DNA from: a virus
Lineage: Duplodnaviria; Heunggongvirae; Uroviricota; Caudoviricetes
IMG/VR virus record: IMGVR_UViG_2731957841_000003
Strand: one strand, 5' to 3'
Length of the DNA: 29,158 nt
Shown: positions 1 through 21,744 of the stretch, piece by piece
Position numbering within the stretch: position 1 is the first letter of the stretch
Layout of the letters: every line of letters starts with the position of its first letter
Program-made: the position numbers and the translations under genes
The notes under the pieces: model-generated
Seen by the model: the letters and a program-made list of their open reading frames with translations, nothing else
Database searches by the model: none
What the model was told of the DNA's origin: nothing

Positions 1-79
1 GTCATAGAACTTCCATTATTCTCCTGAAGATAATAATCGCCAAATAAACCAATACTCAGCTTTACAATATACTAACTAA

Positions 80-113
80 CCGCAGAACGTTATTTCATAC
101 AACGTTTCTGCGG
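80..113 (-). terminator. Stem-loop (12-bp stem with one bulge) just downstream of the tail fibre gene; possible terminator or structured element
   Basis: Inverted repeat ccgcagaacgtt / aacgtttctgcgg with a 9-nt loop, about 200 nt downstream of the stf stop. No clean U-tract follows on either strand. Confidence 0.3.
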
Positions 114-311
114 CATATCACAAAACGATTACTCCATAACAGGGACAGCAGGCCACTCAATATCAGGTGCAGTTGATGTATCAACACGGTTCAGCAACAC
201 CCGATACTTCTTCCAGGCTTCCAGCAACGAGTTTTCTTCCTCCGTTGCGATCTCCAGCTCAACAACAGTCTGAACGTACCAGGAACAGCCTCCTTCAGGG
301 CTTGAAGGATA

Positions 312-3300
312 TCAATGTTCGCTTCCTGTTAACTGCCCGACAAGTGCAACCAGTTCGCTTACCTGATTTTCCAGAGTGCTGATCCGGGTGCCTGCTGTTG
401 CCATATTTTTACGTAGCGTTATGTTTTCCTCTTCCAGCGCGGTAACGCGACCATCTGTTTCACGGGCGACCTGAACAAGTAACCCCGTCACGGCGGAGTA
501 GTCAACATTAAGATAGCGAGTTTCTTCGCGTAGCTCGTTGCCGTCAACGGTCGGACCTTGCAACTCTTCACCATAATGAGTAAACGATCCCACAGCTTCA
601 GGTATCGCCTCCATTACTTCCTGTGCAATAACGCCAGCATAAGGCATTCCGTTTTCCTTGAGCGTGTAGGTGTACCCGTTCATTTTACGGATTGCTTTCG
701 TCGCGTCGCTGATAACGCGAATATCGTCTTTAAGGTCGCGGTCTGATGACTGATTCAGCGTTGTGCAATTAATAGCGCCATTTACATCAAACAACTGGCC
801 TGCTGATGTTTTTTGCGCATAAAACAGATACGCAGCAGACGTTCCAACCTCAAAAACGTTTTGTCGATCACTTGATCCCCATACTTTTGCGGCAAATGAT
901 AGTTCTGTATTACCTAAGTTCTGTAAAACAAAACGATTGCCAGTCCCTGATTGCTTTGTAAGGGTTAAATCAACAGTTGAGTTAACCTCATCCTTGTTGA
1001 TAGTGAGCGCCTGCGCTTTAGCCCCGTTAACAGCACCTGTTTTGAGTTGAACCGCGCCGTCATTACCATTTAGCAGTATCTCAGCTCCGCTAAAGAAATT
1101 TTTTAGCGACAGCATCTTACTTACGCCGACTGATGAACCCAACGCCCACGCGAGAGAATTACCGGTGCTATCAAACCCACGTACAAAGCAATCCATTTTG
1201 CTATAGTCTGACGTGCTTCCAAGGACATCAATCCGCCCTCCGCCAGATTTTAACGGGTTAGATGTGGTTAATGACCTGACAGCAAGATCGGTGGATGAAT
1301 TTAGATCGTCTACTGTTAGTAATTTCTTCCATTCCTGCATCGTTCCGTTTTCAACTGTTCTTCCCCAAAAACCGGAATTGCGGCCTCCGAACTGCACAGC
1401 ATAATTTTTACTAAATTGAACATGAATGCCGCCAAGAACCATAGAACCTGCCGGGCCGTTTGTACTGCCTGCGATTGGTCTAAATTTGTCGACGTTATCA
1501 GTATGCTGAGAGTTCCAGTCATGACCTGTTAATGTTGCGATTCCTGAGTTAGCTGTAATTAACCCAGACGCTTTAAGATTTTGCACATCAATTCTGTCGT
1601 TTGCGAAATTATATGCAATTGCGTTACTAACGCTTCCGGCATCATCATAATCGCGTTTCTGAATAAACCAGTCGCCAGCATTAGCAATGAGAGTATAAGT
1701 AGGCGTGTTAGCCGGGCGATCTGTTTCATTAAATCTTATTGCTGGGTTAGCGCTCCTTATTTGTAAAGGTTTTTCAACCGTTGATTTCAGTATCGCACTA
1801 TCTACAATTAAATTACCTTCTGAGTTAAGGTTTAGATATTTTGAAGCACCAGTTGAACCATCGTATGTAAACCTTATTGTTAATTGACCTGGCTCATTTG
1901 ATAAAGTCTCAACATACATATCAGCACCAAGACGCACAGTGCTGTCAGTTGCTAACAGTCTTGTATGGAGAATACCACTAGATGTGTATGTATTGGTCGA
2001 ATCACTATATCTATCAAGAAATAGACTGTTAAGTTGAGGGCTATTACTCCTGCCTAATCCAAGATTCGTTCTGGCACCATCAATAGTTGCCGCACCAGTG
2101 CCACCATGAGAAACATCAAGCGGTATCCATTCTTTTTGTGTATCGCTGTAACAACCCCATGATGAGGCGGTTAAACCCAGGCGCATGGATTTATCATGGT
2201 TATATAACCATGTTTCGCTATTCAATTGGTCAAGACGGTCCACTTCATTTTTGCGAGCGTGGCGTGTCCATTGCGGGCCTATTGTCGGACTCCAGCGATA
2301 GGTATAAAGCGAGCGAGTAGTCCATCCCTGAAATACACCTGTATACGCTGGTGTTCCATCTACCTGACTAATAAAACCAGTAAGATTACCTTCGCCTGAT
2401 GCAATAGACGGAAAACCTGTTGCGGAAGCAAAAATGCGCATAAAGCCAATATAACCGGATGGATCACCGGAAATATCAGGACAATTGCGCGGTGATGATC
2501 CCAAACCGATGTTAGCACCAACAATACCCTGAGCATGGTTGCGATAATTAAGTGCGTCCGCCGCAGATTTCGCCGCGTTTGTTTCACTGGATTTAGCATT
2601 AGTTTCGCTGGCTTTAGCGTTGGTTTCGCTGCTCTTTGCTGCTGCCTCGCTATTTTTCGCGTTGGTTTCTGATTTTTTGGCTGCTGTCGCGGAGTTTGCC
2701 GATGCAGTTTGTGAGTCTGCTGCCGCCTGTGCGCTGTTATCCGCATTCGTCTCAGACGTTTTTGCGGCCTTCGCGGAATTTCCTGCCGCCGTTGCCGAGG
2801 AAGCTGCACTACTGGCACTTGATGATGCGTTCGTTTCTGATGATTTCGCTGCCTCTTTTGAGGCCGCCGCATCCCGGGCTGAGGTGGCAGCTTCTGACGC
2901 TTTCGTGGTCGCGGTGGATGCAGAAGTGGCGGCTGATTGTTGTGACGCTGCCGCATTCGTTTCTGACGTTTTCGCCGCACCGGCACTGGTGGCCGCCGCG
3001 CTTTTTGAGGACTCTGCAGCGGCAGCACTTTTTGATGCTTCAGTAGCCTTTGTTGATGCCGTTCCTGCGCTGGAAGACGCTGACTGAGCCGACGTCGCGG
3101 CCTGCCCGGCTGATGTGCTGGCTGCACGTGCTGAGCCTGCAGCATCAGTCGCATGGGTTGCCGCCTCACGGGCTGATGTACCGGCATCGCTGGCTGACTT
3201 CTTCGCGGCTGCCGTGTTCTGTGCCACTGCGGACGCGTTACGCGCCACCTCTTCCACCATCAGTTCAAAGCGGCGCAGTGCCTCCGGACGGGCATCATCC

Positions 3301-3485
3301 TCCGTCATAGCACCGAGAAAATCATTCAGCGTACCCGGTTGTGAGTCTTCATACACGGTGATGGTCCCGGCATGCGATGGCGGGAACCATGTTATCCAGT
3401 GACGAGAAATACGTGTTCTGCTTACCGTTATCCGTTGTCTGTGTGCGGGGAGTTCTGGCTTTCGGTGCCAGCATCTGAGCCACAC
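312..3485 (-). CDS. stf: Side tail fibre protein (lambda Stf-like) with Ala/Ser/Thr-rich repetitive shaft and C-terminal intramolecular-chaperone-like domain; extreme N-terminus is chimeric
   Basis: 1057-aa ORF. From about residue 34 (FPPSHAGTITVYEDSQPGTLNDF...) it matches my recollection of lambda Stf; the first ~33 codons overlap gene I in another frame. Long KTSETNA-type repeats. C-terminal ~150 aa resemble the self-cleaving chaperone domain of endosialidase/L-shaped tail fibres (recollection). Confidence 0.85.
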   Translation of the reverse strand: MWLRCWHRKPELPAHRQRITVSRTRISRHWITWFPPSHAGTITVYEDSQPGTLNDFLGAMTEDDARPEALRRFELMVEEVARNASAVAQNTAAAKKSASDAGTSAREAATHATDAAGSARAASTSAGQAATSAQSASSSAGTASTKATEASKSAAAAESSKSAAATSAGAAKTSETNAAASQQSAATSASTATTKASEAATSARDAAASKEAAKSSETNASSSASSAASSATAAGNSAKAAKTSETNADNSAQAAADSQTASANSATAAKKSETNAKNSEAAAKSSETNAKASETNAKSSETNAAKSAADALNYRNHAQGIVGANIGLGSSPRNCPDISGDPSGYIGFMRIFASATGFPSIASGEGNLTGFISQVDGTPAYTGVFQGWTTRSLYTYRWSPTIGPQWTRHARKNEVDRLDQLNSETWLYNHDKSMRLGLTASSWGCYSDTQKEWIPLDVSHGGTGAATIDGARTNLGLGRSNSPQLNSLFLDRYSDSTNTYTSSGILHTRLLATDSTVRLGADMYVETLSNEPGQLTIRFTYDGSTGASKYLNLNSEGNLIVDSAILKSTVEKPLQIRSANPAIRFNETDRPANTPTYTLIANAGDWFIQKRDYDDAGSVSNAIAYNFANDRIDVQNLKASGLITANSGIATLTGHDWNSQHTDNVDKFRPIAGSTNGPAGSMVLGGIHVQFSKNYAVQFGGRNSGFWGRTVENGTMQEWKKLLTVDDLNSSTDLAVRSLTTSNPLKSGGGRIDVLGSTSDYSKMDCFVRGFDSTGNSLAWALGSSVGVSKMLSLKNFFSGAEILLNGNDGAVQLKTGAVNGAKAQALTINKDEVNSTVDLTLTKQSGTGNRFVLQNLGNTELSFAAKVWGSSDRQNVFEVGTSAAYLFYAQKTSAGQLFDVNGAINCTTLNQSSDRDLKDDIRVISDATKAIRKMNGYTYTLKENGMPYAGVIAQEVMEAIPEAVGSFTHYGEELQGPTVDGNELREETRYLNVDYSAVTGLLVQVARETDGRVTALEEENITLRKNMATAGTRISTLENQVSELVALVGQLTGSEH
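2560..3200 (-). repeat. Imperfect tandem coding repeats inside the tail fibre shaft (SETNA/KSAA-type units)
   Basis: Recurring DNA units such as gcgttggtttc[g/t]ctg / tttagc... on the plus strand, matching the repeated protein motifs ...KTSETNA...KSSETNA... Confidence 0.6.
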
Positions 3486-3909
3486 CGCCCAGGATCATAC
3501 TGGCCCCTGCCGCATACATGCCCGATACAGCCGCGGTACCCAGCCAGCCCACAGGGTTCCACCATGCCACCGCAATCAGCGCCGCACCCAGCACTGCCTG
3601 AAAAACACCGCCACTTTTAGCTCCCGCCAGACGCGGCACAATGTGGATCACGGCACCATTTGCCAGCGGCTCATTAAGACGGGCAGATAATTCATTTTCT
3701 CCTGCATCACGCCCGACAATGCGCACCTGATACCAGCCGTCGCTCAGTTTCTGACGAAACGCCGGGAGCTGTGTGGCCAGTGCGCGGATGGCTTCAGCCC
3801 CCGTTTTCACACGAAGGTCGATGCGGCGGCCAAATCGTTGTAAATCCCCGTAAAGGCAGATGCGTGCCATTCCCGGTGACGCCAGAGGGAGTGTGTGCGT
3901 CGCTGCCAT
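3349..3909 (-). CDS. I: Tail tip assembly protein I-like, C-terminus replaced after ...SSLDNMV (deletion junction)
   Basis: 186-aa ORF starting MAATHTLPLASPGMARICLYGDLQRFGRR..., which I recognise as lambda gpI. Lambda gpI is 223 aa by memory; here the frame diverges after DNMV and stops 11 codons later. Confidence 0.8.
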   Translation of the reverse strand: MAATHTLPLASPGMARICLYGDLQRFGRRIDLRVKTGAEAIRALATQLPAFRQKLSDGWYQVRIVGRDAGENELSARLNEPLANGAVIHIVPRLAGAKSGGVFQAVLGAALIAVAWWNPVGWLGTAAVSGMYAAGASMILGGVAQMLAPKARTPRTQTTDNGKQNTYFSSLDNMVPAIACRDHHRV

Positions 3910-4549
3910 TTGTCGGTGTACCTCTCTCGTTTACTCAGTTGTTCAGGAATATGGTGCAGCAGCTCACCGTCACCACAGTAAATGGCGGCATGATTCGGCA
4001 CCGATGAACCAAAACAGCACAGCAGCACGTCGCCAGGCTGCGCCTCTGTCAGTGGGACACGGTAAAAACCCGTTGCCTCCATATTGTCAAGATAGAGATT
4101 CTGGCCGTGACGCCACCAGTCATCCCCGCGATGAAAATCCGGCATCTCAATTCCCGCCAGATGGTAAGCGTCCCGGAACAGCGTGTAACAGTCCGTCACC
4201 CCGTGCTCAAAGCGCCGCCCGGTGAGATGCGGCACACAGAGGAATTTATGAATCGCCCCCGGCAGACCAGCCACCACGGCAAATCACTCTGCACCTGCAG
4301 CCGCCGGTCGGCCTCACTCAGCCAGGGCAGACCACCGGGGTGGCTGTGGACCAGCGCCACAATCTCTCCCTGCATTTCTGCCTGCAGCCAGTCTTCCGGC
4401 GACATACGGAAATACGCCTCCGGCTCACCGGAGATATTCACGCAGGGGAAATATCTTTCCCCCTCCGGCGTGCTTACCACGAAGCCGCACGACTCCGCTG
4501 GCGCACATCGCCGGGCGTGCGCCAGAATCGCTGATTCTGTCTGTGTCAT
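3807..4549 (-). pseudogene. K: Tail assembly protein K-like (MPN/JAMM HSHPGG motif plus NlpC/P60-like C-terminal part), split by a frameshift into ORFs 4196..4549 and 3807..4277
   Basis: N-terminal ORF ends ...DLPWWLVCRG then out-of-frame tail; C-terminal ORF continues ...IHKFLCVPHLTGRRFEHGVTDCYTLFRD... in another frame. The frame switch maps to the C5 run at 4256..4260. Confidence 0.7.
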
Positions 4550-4554
4550 GGGAT

Positions 4555-5253
4555 TTACTGCGAAAGTTTGTTAATGGAAAGGAAGCCGCCAAAGTTGCCG
4601 ACGTTATTGCGAAACTTACAGCCGCTCAGGCATTTGCTGCATTTATCCTTCGTGATATCGGACGTCGGCTGGTCATATTCATCCGCGACTGCCGGACCGT
4701 GATAACCGCACTCATCACCGCGATAGGTCCAGGTGCAGGTGTTGGCCAGCATGATACGTCCCGGAAAAACAGCGCCGTCCGTTTCCGTCGGTGTGGAGAG
4801 CACAAAGGAGGCACTGACCGCGCTCAGTTCGCTGCACTGCTCGATGCGCCAGCGGCTGATCACCTCCTGCTCCGGATCGGCGTCACTGTTTCCGTTGACG
4901 AAGTTCACCGCATCCAGAAAACGGGCGTAAACCTTACGCCGGACCACCGTTCCGCCGACCAGACTCTGCAGATCTTCCGCCATCCCGGTGATCATGCCGT
5001 GCAGGTTAGAGACCGTCAGTGTCGGACGGGCAGCACTGCCCTTGCCGTTCATCTCAAATCCACTCCCCTGAATGGGATAGGCCTGATACTGCCGACTCTG
5101 CCAGGTGACCGACTCACCTTTTTCGTTCTGCTCATTACAGAAAAAGTAGCGATCCCCGCCTACCTCGGTCAGGTCGATTTCCCAGAGCACCACGCTGGCC
5201 GACTGCTCCGCACGAATGCATTCATTCAGCGTTTCCTGTTGTATGTCCTGCAT
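4555..5253 (-). CDS. L: Minor tail protein L
   Basis: 232-aa ORF; sequence and length match my recollection of lambda gpL; position between M and K. Confidence 0.85.
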   Translation of the reverse strand: MQDIQQETLNECIRAEQSASVVLWEIDLTEVGGDRYFFCNEQNEKGESVTWQSRQYQAYPIQGSGFEMNGKGSAARPTLTVSNLHGMITGMAEDLQSLVGGTVVRRKVYARFLDAVNFVNGNSDADPEQEVISRWRIEQCSELSAVSASFVLSTPTETDGAVFPGRIMLANTCTWTYRGDECGYHGPAVADEYDQPTSDITKDKCSKCLSGCKFRNNVGNFGGFLSINKLSQ

Positions 5254-5591
5254 CAGATTACCACTTCGTCAAACTGACACGAAAAATCGGTATAGGTGAT
5301 ATGTTCTGTCGCTGACCACGTTCGACACACCACTCTGATTTTTCTGTTAATACCCGGCGGGCGCCAAAAAAAAGATTTATAGCCTTCATGCCGGGCTAAA
5401 AATTTTTCAAATGAATCACGTTCATTCGCCTCAACTTTGAAATCACAGGTGAAAACGCGCAGAGAATGATTAAGTCCATTTGGACTTCGTTGCTCATAAC
5501 CATCGCCAAATCTTACAGTTTTTATCGATGGTTTATTTTCTGTTTTCATTCCATCCTCTGGTAACCAGTGAAATTCTTCCGTATTAGCCAC
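5253..5591 (-). CDS. M: Minor tail protein M
   Basis: 112-aa ORF with ...VRFGDGYEQRSPNGLN... resembling lambda gpM; start overlaps the tape measure stop and its stop overlaps the L start. Confidence 0.8.
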   Translation of the reverse strand: MANTEEFHWLPEDGMKTENKPSIKTVRFGDGYEQRSPNGLNHSLRVFTCDFKVEANERDSFEKFLARHEGYKSFFWRPPGINRKIRVVCRTWSATEHITYTDFSCQFDEVVI

Positions 5592-8500
5592 TTAACATTC
5601 CCCCATCACGTCGCATATTTAACAGATTGCCCTGCACCCGCTGATCAACCATCCCCATAAGTGCTTTTATTGCCTGAGGGCCAATCTCTCCATTCTGGCC
5701 GTCATTTTGAATAGTGATTTGGTATACAGGGGCATAGGTAATATCTCCGCCTCCATTACCACTTTTACTATTAATAGCTCTGACACCAAGAGAACCATCG
5801 GAAGTTCGTGTTAATGGCATAATGGCTTCCGGACCAGCCTCACCAAAAACACCAGCCCCTCTTGCAAAAGCAAAAAATTGCGGGGAGTCATAAATACCGT
5901 TCGAATACGTGTTCAATGACGGAGACTCATAAACACCGCCCTTTGCATTCGGAATAAATTTACTAATAGCACTCCCGATAGTTCCTAAAATCCCCCCAGA
6001 AGAACTGTTACTAATGCTGTCGAAAATCCCAGTAATTGAAGCCTTTAATGCTATTCGACTAAGATCCGAAATCACGGAAGTAGCGAAAGAACGAAAATTT
6101 GCCTTGCCTGTCGTGACAAAATCACCCAGCGCATCGGTCATTCCATCAAACATCTGAGTCGTGGTTGATTTTATCTGCTCACTGATATCCTTAGTGTCAT
6201 CCAGCCAGTTATTGAATCCCTGGGAGGCACCACTAACCCAGTCTCCTGCCTGAATATCGAGCTGCTCGTTTTTCTGTCTGACAATTTCTTTTTCTCGTTC
6301 CAGAGCATCATTCAGAGCCTGCATTTTCTCCTGAAAAACATGATTTGACATCCCACGGGATTTATCTGCATAGTCACGTTCAAGTTGCAGACGCTGATTG
6401 TTATATTCACGTTCAATCCGCAGTAATTCCTGCTGGCGTTGCTGATTTTTATCGCCAACCCCATAACCAGCAATCTGAATATCATACCCCTGTTGACGAT
6501 TATCAATCGAAGCCTGCAATGAATCACGCCATGCAGCTATTTCGGCGGATTCCTTGATTAGCCTGTTATTTTTTTCAATCGCAACATTTTTCTCCATCAA
6601 CGCGGTTATTTCTTCCCGGTGTAAGAGAAGCGATTTCTGATCCTGGGTTAATTTCGATGACGGTCGTGACTCCAGGTCGGCAATCTGCTGACGCCACTTA
6701 ACCAGTTCCTGTTCAGAGGAACTTAATTTAACGGTTAATTCAGTTTGTGAACTTAGTAACGCATTCTGTTGATTCAGATGATCAATCATTCGTTGGGCAG
6801 CATCATCCGAATAACCTTTCGCCTTTGGTTGCTTTGGATCTTTATAACGTTCATTTATTTGAGCGATAAAATTATTATATTCTTCCTTTGAATACTGACT
6901 CTTTAGCTTTTCCAGTTTTGCAAGTTCACTAGCTCTCTGCTGCTCCCGGGTCTGATATTGTTTTGAAAAGGCATCTGCTCTCTGTCTGAGTTCAATTCCT
7001 TCCTGTTGTCGCTTGTTGTAATCGTTTATTGATGAATTTAGGACGTCCTGAGCAATTTTTTCTGCTTGAAGTACGCCCAATTGCTGCTTTAATCGTGCCA
7101 GCCTTTTATTTTGAGCTCCGCCATCTCCAATGCCACCTAACCCGAAAACTCCGGGTCGGGTATTTTTTCTATTTCATCAATTTGACGGAGAACATCTGAG
7201 ATTTTTTGATCAAGGGAGGCCTCACGGCCAATATCCAGCATGGAATCCCATGCCCATTTTGCGGAGTCTGCGACAGCTTTCCATGCAGTCTCAAGATAAC
7301 CAAGATTTTCTTTAATCTGGTTGGTGCGCTGGATCATTGAGGATGAGTATGCTTCTGTCGCAATGCGGGCGGCCTCCTGCTGGTTCCCTTCATCCTGTAG
7401 CGCCTTAATCTGGTTATAAGTCGCAATTGTCAGAAAATGGTACTGATCATTAAGTTTTGATATGGCACTGACAGGATCCTTTGCAATTTCATTGAAGTCA
7501 TTAACCAGTTGTTCGGTTGATATTCCTGTTACTTCGCTCGTTTTTACTATCGCTGTCGTCACTTGCTCCAGCGAACTGCTCGCTACCTTTCCCGAACGCA
7601 CAAGCTGGTTTAATACTGCCGCCGCAGCGCCAGTTGTCGAATCAGCCGCATTCCCGGCACGTTGAGCTATATCGGCCAATTGCCCGCTGGTTGTCCCCAA
7701 CTGATTTCCGGTAAGAATAAGAGATTTATTAAATTCGTCCTGCTCCTGAGAGCCTTTATAGTAAGCCAGCCCTAAGACGCCAACGGCTGCTGCGGCCAGG
7801 GTAAAAGGATTAATTAATCCCAGCACATAAGAACCAACACCTTTGATCGCCGGGCCAATCCCACCGAACATATCTTTTAGCTGGCCGCCCTGCTGCATTA
7901 ACACCATAAAAGGCGACTGACCAGTGGACAACCCAACAACAATATCCGTCATTTGTGCAGGCAACATGCGCATAGCAAAAGCCGTTTGTTTTGCCGACAT
8001 TCCGGTTTTGCTTAATTGAGATTGAGTAACCTCAAGCTCACTCCGCATAGCACGAAGTTTTCCAGAAAGTTCCTCATACATTTCAGGAGAGAGCATCCCC
8101 TTAGCTTTTGCTTCATTGAGCTGTTTCTGTTGTTCTACCAGACGATTAAAAGCAGTTCCGACAGGGTCAAGTTGAGCAATCAGACGTTGCAAAGCAGCAA
8201 CCTGTTCATCATGCGCTTTTGCTGCTTCTCGCTCTGCCTGAGCCTCTCCGGTAAGCTCTCGCCGTGTTTCCTGTATTTTTCGGCTATAATTCTCAAACTG
8301 AGAACCATTTATTTTCCCGGATGCAAACGCAGCATTAAGTTCATCCTGCTGTTGTTCAAGATTTCTTAGCGCCGCAGCCAGAGGGTCGATCTTGTCCAGC
8401 ATTCTTTGAAAGGCCTGAGCCTGCGCTTCCTGCTGGGCGGCAGCAAGTTTTCCGGCCTTCTCGGCTTCTCTCTGCGCTTGCGCAACCCCGCTCAATTCCT

Positions 8501-15859: not shown

Positions 15860-15934
<75 letters not shown>

Positions 15935-15937
15935 ATA

Positions 15938-16013
<76 letters not shown>

Positions 16014-17195: not shown

Positions 17196-17794
17196 TACGC
17201 AAACTCCAGCAGCTGCGCGGCCACATTTTCGACTTGTTCCGGAGAGGAAAATTTACGGAACAGAATCCAGTTCCACAGCACATTCAGAACAGATTTATAA
17301 ACCTGCTGAAACTCGGTTTCGTCCATATTCGCAAAAGCGATAGATTTTGCCCGACGCCCGCGGCTACCGTCCGGATAAAAATGTTCGGTGTAAAATCCAG
17401 CCTGAATGGTTACCCACTCGCGAAAAGCCTCAAACGACTTTAGCAATGCCGTATCCCGGGTTCTGCGTGTCGCAACTGTATTCAGATATTGCTCTGCGGC
17501 ATCACTCAGGGCTGGCGTGTGTTCCCGACCAACTGATTCGCACAAGTAATCCACGAAACCAGACAGCAGTTCTCGTTCGCGAGGTGTGATCGCCCCACCG
17601 ACCGGAGTCCAGTAATCGAATCCCAGTTGCAGGAGTTTGAAAAAACGCTTGTGGAATGCGTAGTTACGCACACGCTTAAAGTCTGCGTGTATCCACTCAC
17701 CTATTTTGATTTGATGCAGAAAATCGCAACTCTCCGGCGTCGCCGGGAGAAGTAAACCAGAAGAGGTTTGTTTGACCAGTTGTATATGCGCCAT
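17195..17794 (-). CDS. DUF1367-family lambdoid phage protein (YbcN/YdfU-like)
   Basis: 199-aa ORF; position upstream of DUF1364 and Q as in DLP12/Qin (recollection). Confidence 0.55.
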   Translation of the reverse strand: MAHIQLVKQTSSGLLLPATPESCDFLHQIKIGEWIHADFKRVRNYAFHKRFFKLLQLGFDYWTPVGGAITPRERELLSGFVDYLCESVGREHTPALSDAAEQYLNTVATRRTRDTALLKSFEAFREWVTIQAGFYTEHFYPDGSRGRRAKSIAFANMDETEFQQVYKSVLNVLWNWILFRKFSSPEQVENVAAQLLEFA

Positions 17795-18074
17795 TTCTCA
17801 ATCTCTCGATGGCGCAGCGCAGCAGATGCCAGTTGTTCAGGCTGACGAATAAAGTATAAATAAACTGGCTATGGTGTAAAGCCCCACATAGCATGAACAA
17901 ACACTACATATCAAATAGCTGGTACAAGGATAGAAATACGACACTTATTATTAAAAACGATTAGATAAATTACATTTTAATGTTATGCAAAAGTTCTTTT
18001 TTATCATAACATTTCAATAAAAGCATTACAGATGCAATCATCCCGTCATCATCAATTATTTAAGGTGGTTAAAC

Positions 18075-18161
18075 ATGGAAAATAACAAGTTCGCACATCT
18101 CGCTCCTTTTTTATCCGTAATCCTTTTCGCTTGTTGTTTTATATGGGCATTATTTTTATAA
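18075..18161 (+). CDS. 28-aa hydrophobic peptide (MENNKFAHLAPFLSVILFACCFIWALFL): possible small membrane protein or type I toxin-like peptide
   Basis: ATG preceded by AAGGTGG at 6-nt spacing; single predicted transmembrane helix; sits in an AT-rich intergenic stretch. Confidence 0.4.
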   Translation: MENNKFAHLAPFLSVILFACCFIWALFL

Positions 18162-18552
18162 AGTAGCCACATGATAAGTTGCTGGAATCATATTTCCCAC
18201 TCAAGTCATTAACATTTGATAAGATATATCTAAAAGGACGCCTTTACATTATTTATGCGTATATAATTTATTTATATACACAGTAAAGGTATCCTGGGAA
18301 AATATTTATCGTTAAAAAATACATCATAAATAATTAAGCTGAAATTTCAGAACACAACTAATACACACAATAAGGTTCAGTAACAGTAATCTATGTGGAC
18401 TACATCGAGATTTTTTGATTAAACTTTAATAACTTATTCCTAACACACAGAATGCATAAACTAAAAGTAAAACAAATAGTTATACGAAAAACAACCATAT
18501 TTATTCTATCTTCTCCTCTAATCAACATATCAATTATGTGTTTCATAACAGC

Positions 18553-18592
18553 TTGACATAACCCTCCAAAAGATGCATTTTTAATGCATGTT
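18553..18592 (+). promoter_or_regulatory. Putative promoter (-35 TTGACA at 18553..18558) with overlapping NsrR-type operator AAGATGCATTT-T-TAATGCATGTT (18570..18592)
   Basis: Perfect -35 hexamer; 11-1-11 inverted repeat with ATGCAT cores matching the NsrR consensus as I recall it; about 15 nt upstream of the SD of the yeaR-like gene. Confidence 0.55.
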
Positions 18593-18607
18593 TTGGAGGA
18601 GGTGGTT

Positions 18608-18946
18608 ATGACACACAAGAGAATTCCTAAAGATTGGGTAATCAAACGCTCAACTCCGTTCTTCACAAAAGAGAACGTACCTTCAGCGTTATTAACACAT
18701 CATAATACAGCAGCAGGTGTTTTTGGGCAGTTGTGCGTAATGGAAGGCACTGTAACATATTATGGTTTTACTGATGAGAATGCTACTGAACCGGAGATAA
18801 AAGTAGTCATTAATGCTGGCGCTTTTGCAACAAGCCCACCACAATACTGGCACCGTGTTGAACTAAGCGATGATGCTCAGTTTAATATTAACTTTTGGGT
18901 CGCTCCAGACTTCTCGGGCGAAAAAGTCTATAGCACCAAAAAATAG
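18608..18946 (+). CDS. YeaR-like DUF1971 protein (TehB-related)
   Basis: 112 aa from MTHKRIPKDWVIKRSTPFFTKENVPSALLTHH...; strong SD GGAGGAGGTGG; similar to E. coli YeaR as I recall it (...RSTPFWNKQTAPAG...); opposite strand to flanking phage genes. Confidence 0.7.
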   Translation: MTHKRIPKDWVIKRSTPFFTKENVPSALLTHHNTAAGVFGQLCVMEGTVTYYGFTDENATEPEIKVVINAGAFATSPPQYWHRVELSDDAQFNINFWVAPDFSGEKVYSTKK

Positions 18947-18975
18947 ATGATCATATTAAAAATGCTTTAACAGTC

Positions 18976-19012
18976 AGACCCGGCAGGGCTATCCCCGACG
19001 GGTCTCATTTTT
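18976..19012 (+). terminator. Candidate rho-independent terminator for the yeaR-like gene
   Basis: Stem agacccg/cgggtct (large loop) followed by CATTTTTG, 30 nt after the stop codon. Confidence 0.45.
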
Positions 19013-19566
19013 GTAAATATATTGGTTCTACATTGACAGGAGACTTCAACCATAAGAAGTAATCTGAATACTTGAGCAATAAATTTACTTAAGATTAATG
19101 AGCGCACCTTGCCGGACAAAGATAAACCAAGGTAACACCTTTTTTCTAGCCAGTATGTAATCAATCAGAAAGCCGCTCCATAAGAACAACAGCAAGACAA
19201 TAAATTGCCATTACAGCCGCAATAGCCAGCGCACATTTGAGAACCAGCACGACAACCCCCTGTATTAGACGCACACCAGTCCTGATAAATATGAGGCTGT
19301 ATCGTCAGTGATTCAATACAACTATTGGGTATAGTTTCTGTGATTTTATTCTGTAGAAATGGAACACAACAACCAGTCACCACCAGCACTTCCTTAAATG
19401 CTCTAAGTCAGAAACAAGCCAACATTTTAGTCCGCTTTGAGCGATCTGCAGACATTGCTAGCAGCCTTCTGTGTGAATTCTCAGGGAGCAGGTCGGCATA
19501 GCATCACGTTGAGGCTCTTACCCTACTTGTTCACACCAACCCTAACTCCACAGACTGATTCATAAA

Positions 19567-20568
19567 TTAGTAATCTGCGTGTTTCGCACTTTTCAGAAAT
19601 GCTTTCATATTTTCATTAGGTCGCTCAATTTCGAAGTTACTTCCATATAACTCTTGTAATTTTGGCCATAACTTACTTAATAACCCTCTCCTGCGATAAA
19701 ATGGATGTATCCAAACGGTAGATAGGTACGGAGAATTTGCATTTGAATTGTTTATTGTGACCAGCCCAACTAAACATTGTCGATAACCACTATTATCCAT
19801 TGATTGTATTTCTTCGACGAATGGATACGCGATTACATCAGTCCAACCATGATCGGTTGTATCCCATTGCATTCCGTCATGACATTCCTTCGACTGATAG
19901 CGGCGTAAAGCTACACACGCGAGCTTTTGCCAATCTGGAGAATTAATTGTGATCTCTTCATCGTATGACGCGCCTATTGGAGCGGGTATTGGTCTGATTA
20001 ATCCAGCATGGCATTCATCATAGAACTTCATGTTTCCCTCAGAAACGTTGTGTACGTTGGGTTGCTCCATGTGTGCGCCATTCAAAAATAGCTCTGATAG
20101 TAGTGTATCTACACTGTAATCTTTATTGATTATTGTCGGCTTAGAGTTTTTCTTATTAAGGCCGCGAGTAACGATTTTTTGATCAATGTTAACAACATGG
20201 AATAATCCGTCGGGGAGGCTAGCGAACCACGATGGGGCATCGGACCAGAATAGCATGCCTTTTGTACTTCTTAAGAGTTTAATTAAGTTAATACAAGCTT
20301 CTTCACTAGTCTTGCCGTTGATGCGAAGTATGTTAGGACTAAAGTAATATTCATCCATATCAGGGAATGCAGCTTCGCAAAACTCCTGTACATAATTTAG
20401 CACCTGGATTCTACAGAGATCATCATAGCTGGTAATAACTAAGGGGGTATCTTCATTACTATTATGATTATCAATAATGCAATCTATAGCGAGACTTACT
20501 GCTTTGCGTATCACTTCAGTTGAATCTAACGACTCTAAAAATTTTGTCTTTCGTGTGCGAATATCCAT
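19567..20568 (-). CDS. Hypothetical 333-aa protein with C-terminal GNAT-like acetyltransferase motif (second gene of AT-rich cargo cassette)
   Basis: C-terminal ...LSTVWIHPFYRRRGLLSKLWPKLQEL... resembles GNAT motif A (beta4-alpha3, R-x-x-G); N-terminal ~250 aa unassigned; AT-rich codon usage; 15-bp gap to upstream gene. Confidence 0.5.
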   Translation of the reverse strand: MDIRTRKTKFLESLDSTEVIRKAVSLAIDCIIDNHNSNEDTPLVITSYDDLCRIQVLNYVQEFCEAAFPDMDEYYFSPNILRINGKTSEEACINLIKLLRSTKGMLFWSDAPSWFASLPDGLFHVVNIDQKIVTRGLNKKNSKPTIINKDYSVDTLLSELFLNGAHMEQPNVHNVSEGNMKFYDECHAGLIRPIPAPIGASYDEEITINSPDWQKLACVALRRYQSKECHDGMQWDTTDHGWTDVIAYPFVEEIQSMDNSGYRQCLVGLVTINNSNANSPYLSTVWIHPFYRRRGLLSKLWPKLQELYGSNFEIERPNENMKAFLKSAKHADY

Positions 20569-20583
20569 GTATGACCTGCGCTA

Positions 20584-21606
20584 TTAAAATTCATGAATGA
20601 ACGGTTTGTCATCTGGTTGCAAAATGGTGGTTTTATTCGTTGCTACATTTAAACTGTTGTAGAGCATAATTGCCAGGTTCGATGCATTTTCAATCAGCGT
20701 TTCAAGATCCTGGTCTGTAATCACTACGAGGTTCCCTTCTTTATCCTTTCCACCACGATGCACTAAGTGATTTCGATTGAGGGTTGCCAATTCAATAGCT
20801 TCTATCGGACAGTCTTTTTGTACTTTTATATCGAATGTAGCTTCATAGCGGTCGATTACCTTTTTAGTGCTATGCCAGCTTGCACTGATCAAGTGTTCCT
20901 TGATTGACCTGATTAGCTCTCCCCTAATTTTCTCGATGGGTTCACCCTTGAAAGGCAACGCAGCAATATCTTTGCTTACTTTAAATTCAGTCTTACCTTT
21001 TTCTATACAATTGGCTATGTAGACATCATCTTTCTCTATAGAATTAATGAATAGCTCAACATAAAGCGTTTCCAAAGCTGTAATAACATTCGTGTAGAGC
21101 AAACTAAGCAAGTGGTTTTTTTGCTGTTGTTCAGTTTTATCTTTTGCAAGTTTTTTTATTTTATCGATATTATCAATGAATTTTAAATACGGATTACCGG
21201 AAGACGTTACAGCGTCGTAGATATCATCATCGTACCAATCATCTATATTATTTGAGTTTCCAGACCAGTCAAAACATTGTGTTTGTAATTCATCTACTAA
21301 TTCCTCAATATACTCAGATTTAACATATTGACCGAAGATGGATTGTAGTTCTTCGCTCGCATCATACGGCCCGCCATATATGTAAGCATAGCCACCTTCT
21401 CTACTTTCATACGGACAAGCATTTGCCGGATCTTCAAAGTTTTCAAAGAACCAGTTTTTCATTACTTCGAGTTGATCTTTTTTGCTTATGTATTTTAAAG
21501 ATTTTAGTGGAACTTTCTTTCCATTAACCTCGAAAACAATTTTCACGATGTAACGCTCCCTTGTATCAATTGCGCAACTATTATACCACAGCGAAATACA
21601 GGGCAT
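20584..21606 (-). CDS. Hypothetical 340-aa protein with C-terminal R-x4-H (HEPN-like) motif (first gene of AT-rich cargo cassette)
   Basis: ORF listed as 363 aa; preferred start is the ATG at 21606 (MPCISLWYNS...) preceded by AAGGAGG. C-terminal ...ELATLNRNHLVHRGG... carries R-x4-H; strongly AT-rich. Confidence 0.5.
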   Translation of the reverse strand: MPCISLWYNSCAIDTRERYIVKIVFEVNGKKVPLKSLKYISKKDQLEVMKNWFFENFEDPANACPYESREGGYAYIYGGPYDASEELQSIFGQYVKSEYIEELVDELQTQCFDWSGNSNNIDDWYDDDIYDAVTSSGNPYLKFIDNIDKIKKLAKDKTEQQQKNHLLSLLYTNVITALETLYVELFINSIEKDDVYIANCIEKGKTEFKVSKDIAALPFKGEPIEKIRGELIRSIKEHLISASWHSTKKVIDRYEATFDIKVQKDCPIEAIELATLNRNHLVHRGGKDKEGNLVVITDQDLETLIENASNLAIMLYNSLNVATNKTTILQPDDKPFIHEF

Positions 21607-21744
21607 AACCTGCCTCCTTAAACTAACATACCATGAGCCAGCAATGTCCGCTATTGGCACAAAGCGGACAACCACGCTAGCTCTCCCCTGTGCCAGAAAA
21701 ATGTCAATTTACATATGAACTAATGCTCTTTGATCTAGTAACGT

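Follow-up and report, generated by a model that had tools for sequence, protein, structure and literature searches.

Does the 28-codon open reading frame (ORF) in an AT-rich gap of the virus record IMGVR_UViG_2731957841_000003 (Caudoviricetes) represent a gene, and if so, what would its hydrophobic product do? The window, i.e., the whole stretch of 29,158 nucleotides that was analyzed, is a defective Rac-type lambdoid prophage, and the ORF is located between its replication and nin/Q modules, pointing against the early-right operon. An earlier note on this DNA had described the ORF as preceded by AAGGTGG at ideal spacing, as encoding a single predicted transmembrane helix and as resembling type I toxin peptides or small membrane regulators. 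The conservation pattern in related prophages shows that selection maintains a translatable micro-gene, and an element upstream of it, at one edge of a prophage cargo slot. The most likely reading, to which a probability of about 0.5 was given, is that the product would act at the inner membrane to protect the lysogen or to modulate the host; that the predicted single-pass inner-membrane peptides of 28 residues constitute a new family of Rac- and Qin-type lambdoid prophages of Escherichia and Shigella was judged an even chance.

The sequence and the list of ORFs placed the start at the ATG at 18075 and the stop at the TAA at 18159-18161. A longer version of the ORF is impossible, since an in-frame TAA at 18018-18020 is not followed by any ATG, GTG or TTG before 18075. 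Mean Kyte-Doolittle (KD) hydropathy was 2.52 for residues 9-28 and -1.39 for residues 1-8, a profile that indicates one hydrophobic helix reaching the C-terminus; the single transmembrane helix predicted earlier fits this value and the size of 28 amino acids. All 21 peptide variants end in W-A-L-F-L, and no charged residues occur beyond K5 and H8. A comparable ORF was found in 8 of 3000 shuffles (0.3%) of the 813-bp gap (17795-18607), where shuffling preserved dinucleotides, both strands were searched, and the criteria were an ATG, 20-50 codons, a Shine-Dalgarno (SD) match of at least 5 nt and an 18-residue window with KD of at least 2.2. The ORF with its SD is unlikely to be a chance feature, and the ORF and the spacing of AAGGTGG given in the earlier note were thus borne out by the sequence, the ORF list and the shuffle test. 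The gap is AT-rich, as had been described (G+C content 0.30 for 18001-18400 and 0.34 for 18401-18800), but its description as free of ORFs did not hold at 60 amino acids: two mechanical ORFs on the minus strand overlap its edges (17697-17900, 67 amino acids; 18400-18666, 88 amino acids with a GTG start), neither of which has a RefSeq annotation.

Of 5426 complete E. coli genomes, between 850 and 1175 (about 22%) matched the region in megablast and blastn searches, and no annotated feature covered the ORF in 60 sampled E. coli matches. About 700 E. coli genomes matched at 72-75% identity only, with homology stopping at query position 213, which is position 18162 of the window and one base beyond the last base of the stop codon. 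In these copies the ORF was intact, with 28 codons, unchanged start and stop, the SD form AAGGTGA and many synonymous differences. A peptide-pattern scan of IMG/VR yielded 192 relatives, 80 of which were fetched, and a second scan was anchored by exact pattern on the non-coding block upstream of the ORF, hence being independent of the ORF itself. Among the 80 loci examined from this second scan, 77 were genuine and all 77 carried the intact 28-codon ORF, the other three being unrelated chance matches. A metagenome scan added 75 full-length copies, all intact, and two more that were cut by contig ends. The total of about 277 copies, in which some contigs are shared between scans and the viral, metagenome and genome sets are non-independent samples, comprised 27 DNA alleles and 21 peptide variants, all of 28 codons; none of the alleles had a frameshift or a nonsense mutation. 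A lack of conservation among related prophages, such as an indel that breaks the frame, had been named beforehand as what would speak against the gene; this was looked for, and every copy found was intact.

Between lineages, the proportion of differences was 0.42-0.62 at synonymous sites (pS) and 0.08-0.18 at nonsynonymous sites (pN), with a pN/pS ratio of 0.12-0.38; the first, second and third positions of the codons had 6, 9 and 17 variable columns, respectively. The frame of the ORF was open in 15 of 15 alleles and the remaining five frames in 0-8 of 15, and a Fisher test of synonymous versus nonsynonymous change between the window and locus L043, of the most diverged allele class, gave p = 8.5e-6. 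Residues M1, N3, N4, H8, P11, L13, S14, I16, F18, W24, F27 and L28 are invariant, C21 is nearly so, and a pair of Cys is present in most peptide variants. Of the features by which Hemm and Storz recognize small-protein genes, a start codon preceded by an SD, a conserved reading frame and purifying selection among diverged homologues were found here. Judged by these comparisons, the pattern is the one that purifying selection leaves on a translated gene.

The same data bear on two other explanations of the ORF. T-rich DNA easily encodes strings rich in Phe, Leu and Ile, and the peptide could thus be a chance product, or the signal-peptide remnant of a gene truncated by cargo insertion; a lipobox-like LFAC in the window allele and a weak match to an NCBIfam lipoprotein signal (E = 0.046) would agree with a remnant. 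The rarity of such ORFs in shuffled DNA, the purifying selection and the universal intactness all oppose this, the stop codon lies within the conserved segment in every lineage, and the majority lineage reads FVLC, with Leu at -1 and hence no lipobox. The conservation data effectively refute this explanation, which is barely credible. A bacterial lipoprotein was also considered and rejected, since, in place of the lipobox [LVI][ASTVI][GAS]C, the window allele has the lipobox-like LFAC and the majority lineages have FVLC or FVFC with Leu or Phe at -1, and since the mature part would consist of only 8-9 hydrophobic residues. It is likewise quite improbable that what is conserved is a nucleic-acid element, be it an RNA with a structural or regulatory role or a slot-edge site in the DNA, within which the ORF has no functional peptide. 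Such an element would account for the upstream block conserved at the nucleotide level, for invariant synonymous sites within the ORF (CCT TTT TTA and the terminal TTT TTA TAA) and for the pairing of the SD and AUG with codons 8-14 that RNAalifold can form. Non-coding constraint does not, however, predict third-position substitutions with the pN/pS observed, nor the preservation of a single frame with length, start, stop and SD constant in all alleles. The putative SD-sequestering helix was rejected, as it showed no covariation beyond controls, and the pairing probability of the SD and AUG (0.57-0.74) did not differ from that of 300 synonymous recodings per lineage.

The ORF forms part of a larger conserved module (Table 1). 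An alignment of its 46 unique versions (215-222 nt), in which lineages were compared segment by segment, revealed two conserved islands with near-neutral DNA between them, and the upstream island is conserved more than the ORF. The left limit of the module is at about 17921, beyond which the DNA of loci L043 and L265 is unrelated, and the right limit is 1-2 nt beyond the stop codon. Across the 46 versions the SD reads AAGGTGA or AAGGTGG, with AAAGTGA or AAAGCGA in one lineage and AAGGTAG in L043.

Table 1. Features of the peptide locus and its surroundings, in window numbering; identities are between lineages.
Feature	Position	Strand	Description
Whole conserved module (about 240 bp)	17921..18163	+	GTACAAG to two bases beyond the stop codon; flanks differ between lineages
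Near-invariant non-coding upstream block, TTATTATTAAAAACGATTAGATAAATTACATTTTAATGTTATGCAA	17945..17990	.	89-96% identical, where leaders are 45-60% identical
P1 candidate promoter, -10 TATTAT	17946..17951	+	invariant in 46/46 modules; found by position weight matrix (PWM) scan in 8/8 representatives
Hairpin H1 (RNAalifold)	17980..18012	+	invariant arm ATGTTATG (17980-17987) pairs with CATAACAT (18005-18012)
H1 loop and 3' arm	17991-18014		50-62% identical
Pas, candidate antisense promoter CTGTAA-17-TATGAT	18003..18031	-	-10 at 18008-18003; leftward across the invariant block
P2 candidate promoter, -10 TAACAT	18007..18012	+	-35 ATGCAA at 17985-17990; 16-nt spacer
Leader	about 18015-18057		45-60% identical
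SD to ATG	about 18058-18077		71-81% identical
Shine-Dalgarno AAGGTGG	18062..18068	+	ATG 6 nt downstream; conserved in 46/46 unique modules
28-codon ORF and stop	18075..18161	+	predicted product MENNKFAHLAPFLSVILFACCFIWALFL: polar N-terminal octapeptide, then one 20-residue hydrophobic helix
ORF segment	18078-18158		79-84% identical
tRNA-Gly(TCC), tRNA-Thr(TGT)	15860-16013	-	between Q gene and lysis region, likewise in vB_EcoS-683R6
Promoter-like TTTACA-16-TATACT	17853..17880	-	upstream of DUF1367 and facing DUF1367-YbcO-Q; divergent from the peptide gene, outside the module
DUF1971 hairpin	18557-18610	+	directly upstream of and including the DUF1971 start codon

Five unrelated downstream contexts begin just past the stop codon: a convergent hok gene (45 loci), an AT-rich spacer followed by DUF1971 (39 loci, the window among them), iteAS behind a bidirectional terminator (2 loci), a gene for a 689-amino acid ATPase (L098) and a context unique to L043. 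Cargo varies even within these classes, since L003 carries TPR and DUF262 genes deeper in the slot and L033 a gene for a 587-amino acid NTPase. On the other side, two upstream backbones were found, DUF1367-YbcO-Q and the Qin-type YdfU(DUF968)-RusA-Q. On this evidence from locus comparison, the module is the conserved nin-side border of a hotspot for defense or moron cargo, and the break of homology exactly at the stop codon would be the expected product of selection against recombinants that damage the ORF. The module was retained intact in decayed prophages, namely the window, which has no immunity region, and the remnant in L265. A comparable arrangement is known from the P2 and P4 hotspots (Rousset et al., 2022, PMC9122126), where a conserved element also borders a slot that exchanges unrelated defense or moron cargo. 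Unlike in P2 and P4, the border here is a 240-bp micro-gene module of lambdoid Rac- and Qin-type prophages, with the break within 2 nt of the stop codon.

The variety of downstream contexts also makes it highly improbable that the ORF is a leader peptide or upstream ORF that controls DUF1971 in cis, through translational coupling or attenuation. The two genes share a strand in the window lineage, with DUF1971 (a TehB-N-like protein) being the next plus-strand gene at a distance of 446 nt and no convincing terminator in between, and DUF1971 has a strong SD-sequestering hairpin of its own, all of which would suit such control. However, 446 nt is too long for coupling, the downstream DNA differs in most lineages and is usually convergent (hok or iteS on the opposite strand), the iteAS type has a bidirectional terminator right after the ORF, and the peptide is conserved across all downstream contexts. 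The DUF1971 hairpin itself has a folding energy of -26.1 kcal/mol (z = -5.84), with CCCUCCAAAA pairing with UUUUGGAGG, which holds the SD, and CAUAACC with GGUUAUG, which holds the AUG. It is kept in related loci with at least one compensatory change (CCCTC/GAGG to CCATC/GATG), and may be a translational switch for DUF1971.

The upstream block probably contains a promoter, an operator, the beginning of the mRNA, or more than one of these; statements on promoters refer here to consensus matches only. Candidate P1 scored 6.6-7.8 with the -35 TTGCTG of the hok-linked lineages and 2.0 with the TACAAG of the window lineage, and would set the transcription start near 17958, giving a leader of about 118 nt. 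Candidate P2 is weak (score 3.5-5.7), with its position conserved in 8 of 8 representatives. In hairpin H1 every pair was kept in 46 of 46 modules, and the G-C/G-U and U-A/U-G switches pair only in plus-strand RNA; 99.1% of H1 cells were paired, versus 20-54% when the partners were slid, with the covariation coming from few events. Because H1 pairs in plus-strand RNA, a transcription start upstream of 17980, i.e., at P1, is mildly favored, again on few events. The block also contains TAGATAAATT, a 9/10 match to the H-NS nucleation motif, TCGATAAATT, and silencing by H-NS is likely in this DNA of 30% G+C. A further hairpin 5' of the SD (AATCCT/AGGATT versus AACCCT/AGGGTT) was rejected, since many alleles have a C-A mismatch and other lineages differ there. 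In L004 an IS3-family insertion sequence (IS) is inserted at the SD, which it duplicates (2737-3950), and in L033 an IS2 is located directly upstream of the conserved block (about 1120-2393 of the oriented sub-region); the ORF is intact in both.

The next question is whether the module is a toxin-antitoxin system of type I, in which a membrane-depolarizing peptide would be repressed by an antisense or divergent small RNA (sRNA) acting on the invariant 5' block, and which would stabilize the prophage or abort phage infection upon RNA decay. The peptide resembles Ibs, ShoB, ZorO, TisB and DinQ in size and hydrophobicity (in part PMC2887945). The module is prophage-borne and often adjoins hok, and type I systems on prophages are known to stabilize their host prophage (PMC12648545), so that its location would suit such a system. 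The part of it that is conserved most strongly is the non-coding block, which precedes the start codon by 85-130 nt. RNAs of the IstR-1 or OrzO type pair with their targets in such an upstream region. Candidate promoters on the minus strand face the block: the window lineage has Pas, and the hok-linked lineages have TTTCCA-16-TATGAT directly 5' of the SD. Neither of them is well conserved, with scores of 1.8-4.3 or absence in other lineages; for Pas itself the score was 7.3-8.1 in the window lineage and fell to 2.9-4.3 in the hok-linked ones, and L043 lacks it. No conserved minus-strand promoter scoring at least 5 was found inside the module, nor any conserved antisense promoter within or downstream of the ORF, and those facing the leader were inconsistent. 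No intrinsic terminator for an antisense RNA was found, Rfam at E <= 1 returned only two tRNAs and noise, with no antitoxin RNA family in the gap, no second or complementary copy of the block occurs in the window, and the wobble pairs of H1 favor the plus strand. The search for an overlapping antisense promoter or sRNA that had been suggested earlier thus returned, from consensus scans, weak and non-conserved promoters with neither a terminator nor an Rfam family.

The mRNA and the peptide likewise differ from those of the classical toxins. Folding of the leader and mRNA was like that of shuffled sequences (z = -1.08 to +1.44), and native mRNAs were less structured than their synonymous recodings; the leader is unstructured and the SD not occluded, which does not correspond to the inert mRNA of such systems. 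As the SD is strong and exposed on an unstructured mRNA, transcriptional control and a tolerated product are suggested. The cluster of charged or bulky residues at the C-terminus, which was a search criterion of Fozo et al. (2010, PMC2887945), is missing as to charge from the peptide. There was no match to Hok, Ldr, Ibs, TisB or any other toxin model: hmmscan against Pfam and NCBIfam at E <= 10 gave no match for the window allele and, for the hok-linked variant, one irrelevant match per library, the lipoprotein Lp6.6 (E = 0.046) and Sec20 (E = 0.36), while PADLOC gave no match to the peptide and PHROGs gave only matches at E >= 0.1. The evidence for a classical toxin controlled by an RNA antitoxin was mostly not found, and a type I system is the main rival, doubtful though still appreciable; toxicity at high dose may occur on the sequence evidence. 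It is similarly only a tentative proposal that the module of about 240 bp is a self-contained membrane-acting system, be it a type I-like toxin with an RNA-docking block or an effector of exclusion or abortive infection. Of the resemblances suggested in the earlier note, that to type I toxins stood for size and hydrophobicity and failed for toxin families, leader, SD and C-terminus, and that to small membrane regulators appears to fit the evidence better.

These comparisons extend to the known systems themselves. IbsC, ShoB, ZorO, TisB, DinQ, LdrD and Hok are, like the peptide, very small (19-52 amino acids) with a single hydrophobic helix, and genes of enterobacterial type I toxins are, like the peptide gene, often unannotated, often located on mobile elements and accompanied by a conserved upstream non-coding region. 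Unlike these toxins, the peptide is unrelated in sequence and has no conserved antisense RNA gene that could be found, its leader is unstructured with the SD exposed, its helix extends to the C-terminus without a charged or polar tail, and its gene is single-copy rather than tandem. AcrZ, MgtS, MgrB, KdpF, CydX and PmrR share with the peptide a size of at most 50 amino acids, one transmembrane helix and a strong SD, and in proteins of this class specific residues of the helix are conserved as well. Small inner-membrane proteins act, or presumably act, by binding a larger membrane protein (PMC12648545). Proteins of the AcrZ class are nevertheless encoded by core chromosomal genes and have known partners, whereas the peptide is prophage-borne, restricted to Escherichia and Shigella and non-homologous to them. 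Small proteins by which prophages protect their lysogens at the inner membrane include DicB (PMC6832061) and SieA (PMC10883804); together with HK97 gp15 and T4 Imm, DicB of Qin and SieA of P22 resemble the peptide in being encoded by lambdoid, in part cryptic, prophages. Members of the DicB and SieA group are expressed independently of lytic genes and block incoming phage DNA via inner-membrane proteins (PMC6832061, PMC10883804), but they are larger (62 to more than 150 amino acids) and unrelated in sequence to the peptide, and DicB is cytoplasmic.

By analogy with DicB, SieA and the small-membrane-protein regulators, the preferred reading is that the peptide protects the lysogen or modulates the host, acting at the inner membrane. 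The gene would be transcribed from its own weak, AT-rich promoter, probably silenced by H-NS; regulation would be at transcription, given the unstructured mRNA and its exposed strong SD. Synthesis of the peptide would take place in the lysogen, and convergent early-right transcription would silence the gene in lytic growth, as suggested by the orientation of the gene against the early-right operon. The peptide would insert with its N-terminus in and C-terminus out and would act via sequence-specific contacts rather than generic membrane damage, as suggested by the invariant residues, the near-invariant C21 and the Cys pair. The peptide would have either a membrane protein or itself as its partner, and candidate roles would be the blocking of an inner-membrane phage entry factor or the tuning of a transporter. 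As for superinfection exclusion, only the opposed orientation and the position in a defense hotspot would be consistent with it.

Several observations weigh against this role. No strong sigma-70 promoter conserved inside the module was found by either a simple scan or a PWM scan. The strongly conserved block, at 85-130 nt upstream of the start, looks like the regions to which sRNAs pair in divergently encoded type I systems, and the weak antisense promoter Pas is present in the window lineage. The variable positions of the peptide formed no significant stripe on one face of the helix (P = 0.24), and since this test was not significant, a specific interface is suggested solely by the count of invariant residues. 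Finally, the peptide is absent from the ribosome profiling (Ribo-seq) supplement of O157:H7 Sakai, a strain for which carriage of the module is not established.

The gene is carried by E. coli, Shigella flexneri, E. ruysiae, gut and food metagenomes and IMG/VR contigs, as well as by four GenBank phages (vB_EcoS-683R6, -666R9, -613R10 and -673R7), none of which has the peptide gene annotated; the small coding sequence annotated within this gap in ON470614.1 is another ORF, on the opposite strand. Two matches labeled as plasmids are chromosomes, since the records are of 4.8-4.9 Mb. The module was not found in Qin of K-12 (ydfU-rem-hokD), and no homologous or analogous small hydrophobic ORF was found beside DUF1367 in Salmonella, Citrobacter, Pantoea, Erwinia, Serratia, Klebsiella and others.

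Genomic context analysis of the window revealed integrase, recT and recE on the plus strand, and on the minus strand the replication genes, DUF1627, DUF977, two cargo genes, DUF1367, YbcO and a Q-type antiterminator (DUF1133), after which come tRNA-Thr and tRNA-Gly. Next in line, the related locus L001 carries lysis genes. A holin or antiholin was considered for the peptide and rejected, as essD and rrrD of L001 lie on the other strand, about 3 kb leftward and past Q and the tRNAs, and the C-terminus of the peptide is uncharged. Only about 125 bp separate the start of the first replication gene (24475) from that of recE (24601), and this interval lacks a repressor, cro, kil or sieB region; thus the prophage is defective and its immunity region lost. 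The promoter-like TTTACA-16-TATACT is kept on both prophage backbones, and conservation of about 60 bp around it extends to Salmonella and Citrobacter; it may serve the nin/Q genes as an internal promoter. A role of the module as transcriptional insulator, i.e., a convergent unit shielding Q from cargo read-through, was rejected because it leaves the selection on amino acids unexplained.

Further observations concern the slot and single loci. The window slot (18162-21700) encodes DUF1971, a 333-amino acid protein with a weak GNAT match and a 363-amino acid protein with a weak HEPN/RES-NTD match, none of the three matching PADLOC. An imperfect inverted repeat of 46 nt (19417-19462 and 21637-21682, 72% complementary) flanks the gene pair for the latter two proteins and may mark the ends of an inserted cassette. 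A literature search on IteA and IteS yielded nothing relevant. The hok gene was intact in 71 of 72 loci, having lost its stop codon in L044 (2719-3006 of the oriented sub-region), where the frame is extended to 95 amino acids; the argument that toxins decay while the ORF does not was dropped for this reason. In L265, part of a 204-kb metagenome contig, positions 1-6084 carry the most diverged allele class (L043 type) with the ORF still intact, next to a trkG-like gene and chromosomal yobA-yebZ-yebY-holE, and this locus looks like a prophage remnant.

None of four peptide variants was present in an exact look-up of a collection of 15 billion proteins, a full-text literature search for the peptide and its fragments found none, the peptide is absent from Fozo et al. 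(2010, PMC2887945), and no meaningful family match was obtained in Pfam, NCBIfam, PHROGs and PADLOC. At 87 nt the gene is shorter than the minimum gene length of Prodigal, 90 nt, which would explain its absence from databases. The predicted peptide is accordingly a new family of a known kind, that of the small hydrophobic prophage proteins. About 22% of complete E. coli genomes, and inducible phages as well, thus contain a gene that has never been annotated, named or assigned to a family, and even the best-studied species still harbors conserved coding genes too short for the cut-off of gene callers. One border of the slot is marked to the base by the module, which thereby provides a practical anchor for mining a lambdoid hotspot that holds hok, iteAS, NTPase and other defense-type cargo. 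Should the peptide prove toxic or phage-excluding, it would be among the smallest such effectors known, and one with a delimited regulatory element.

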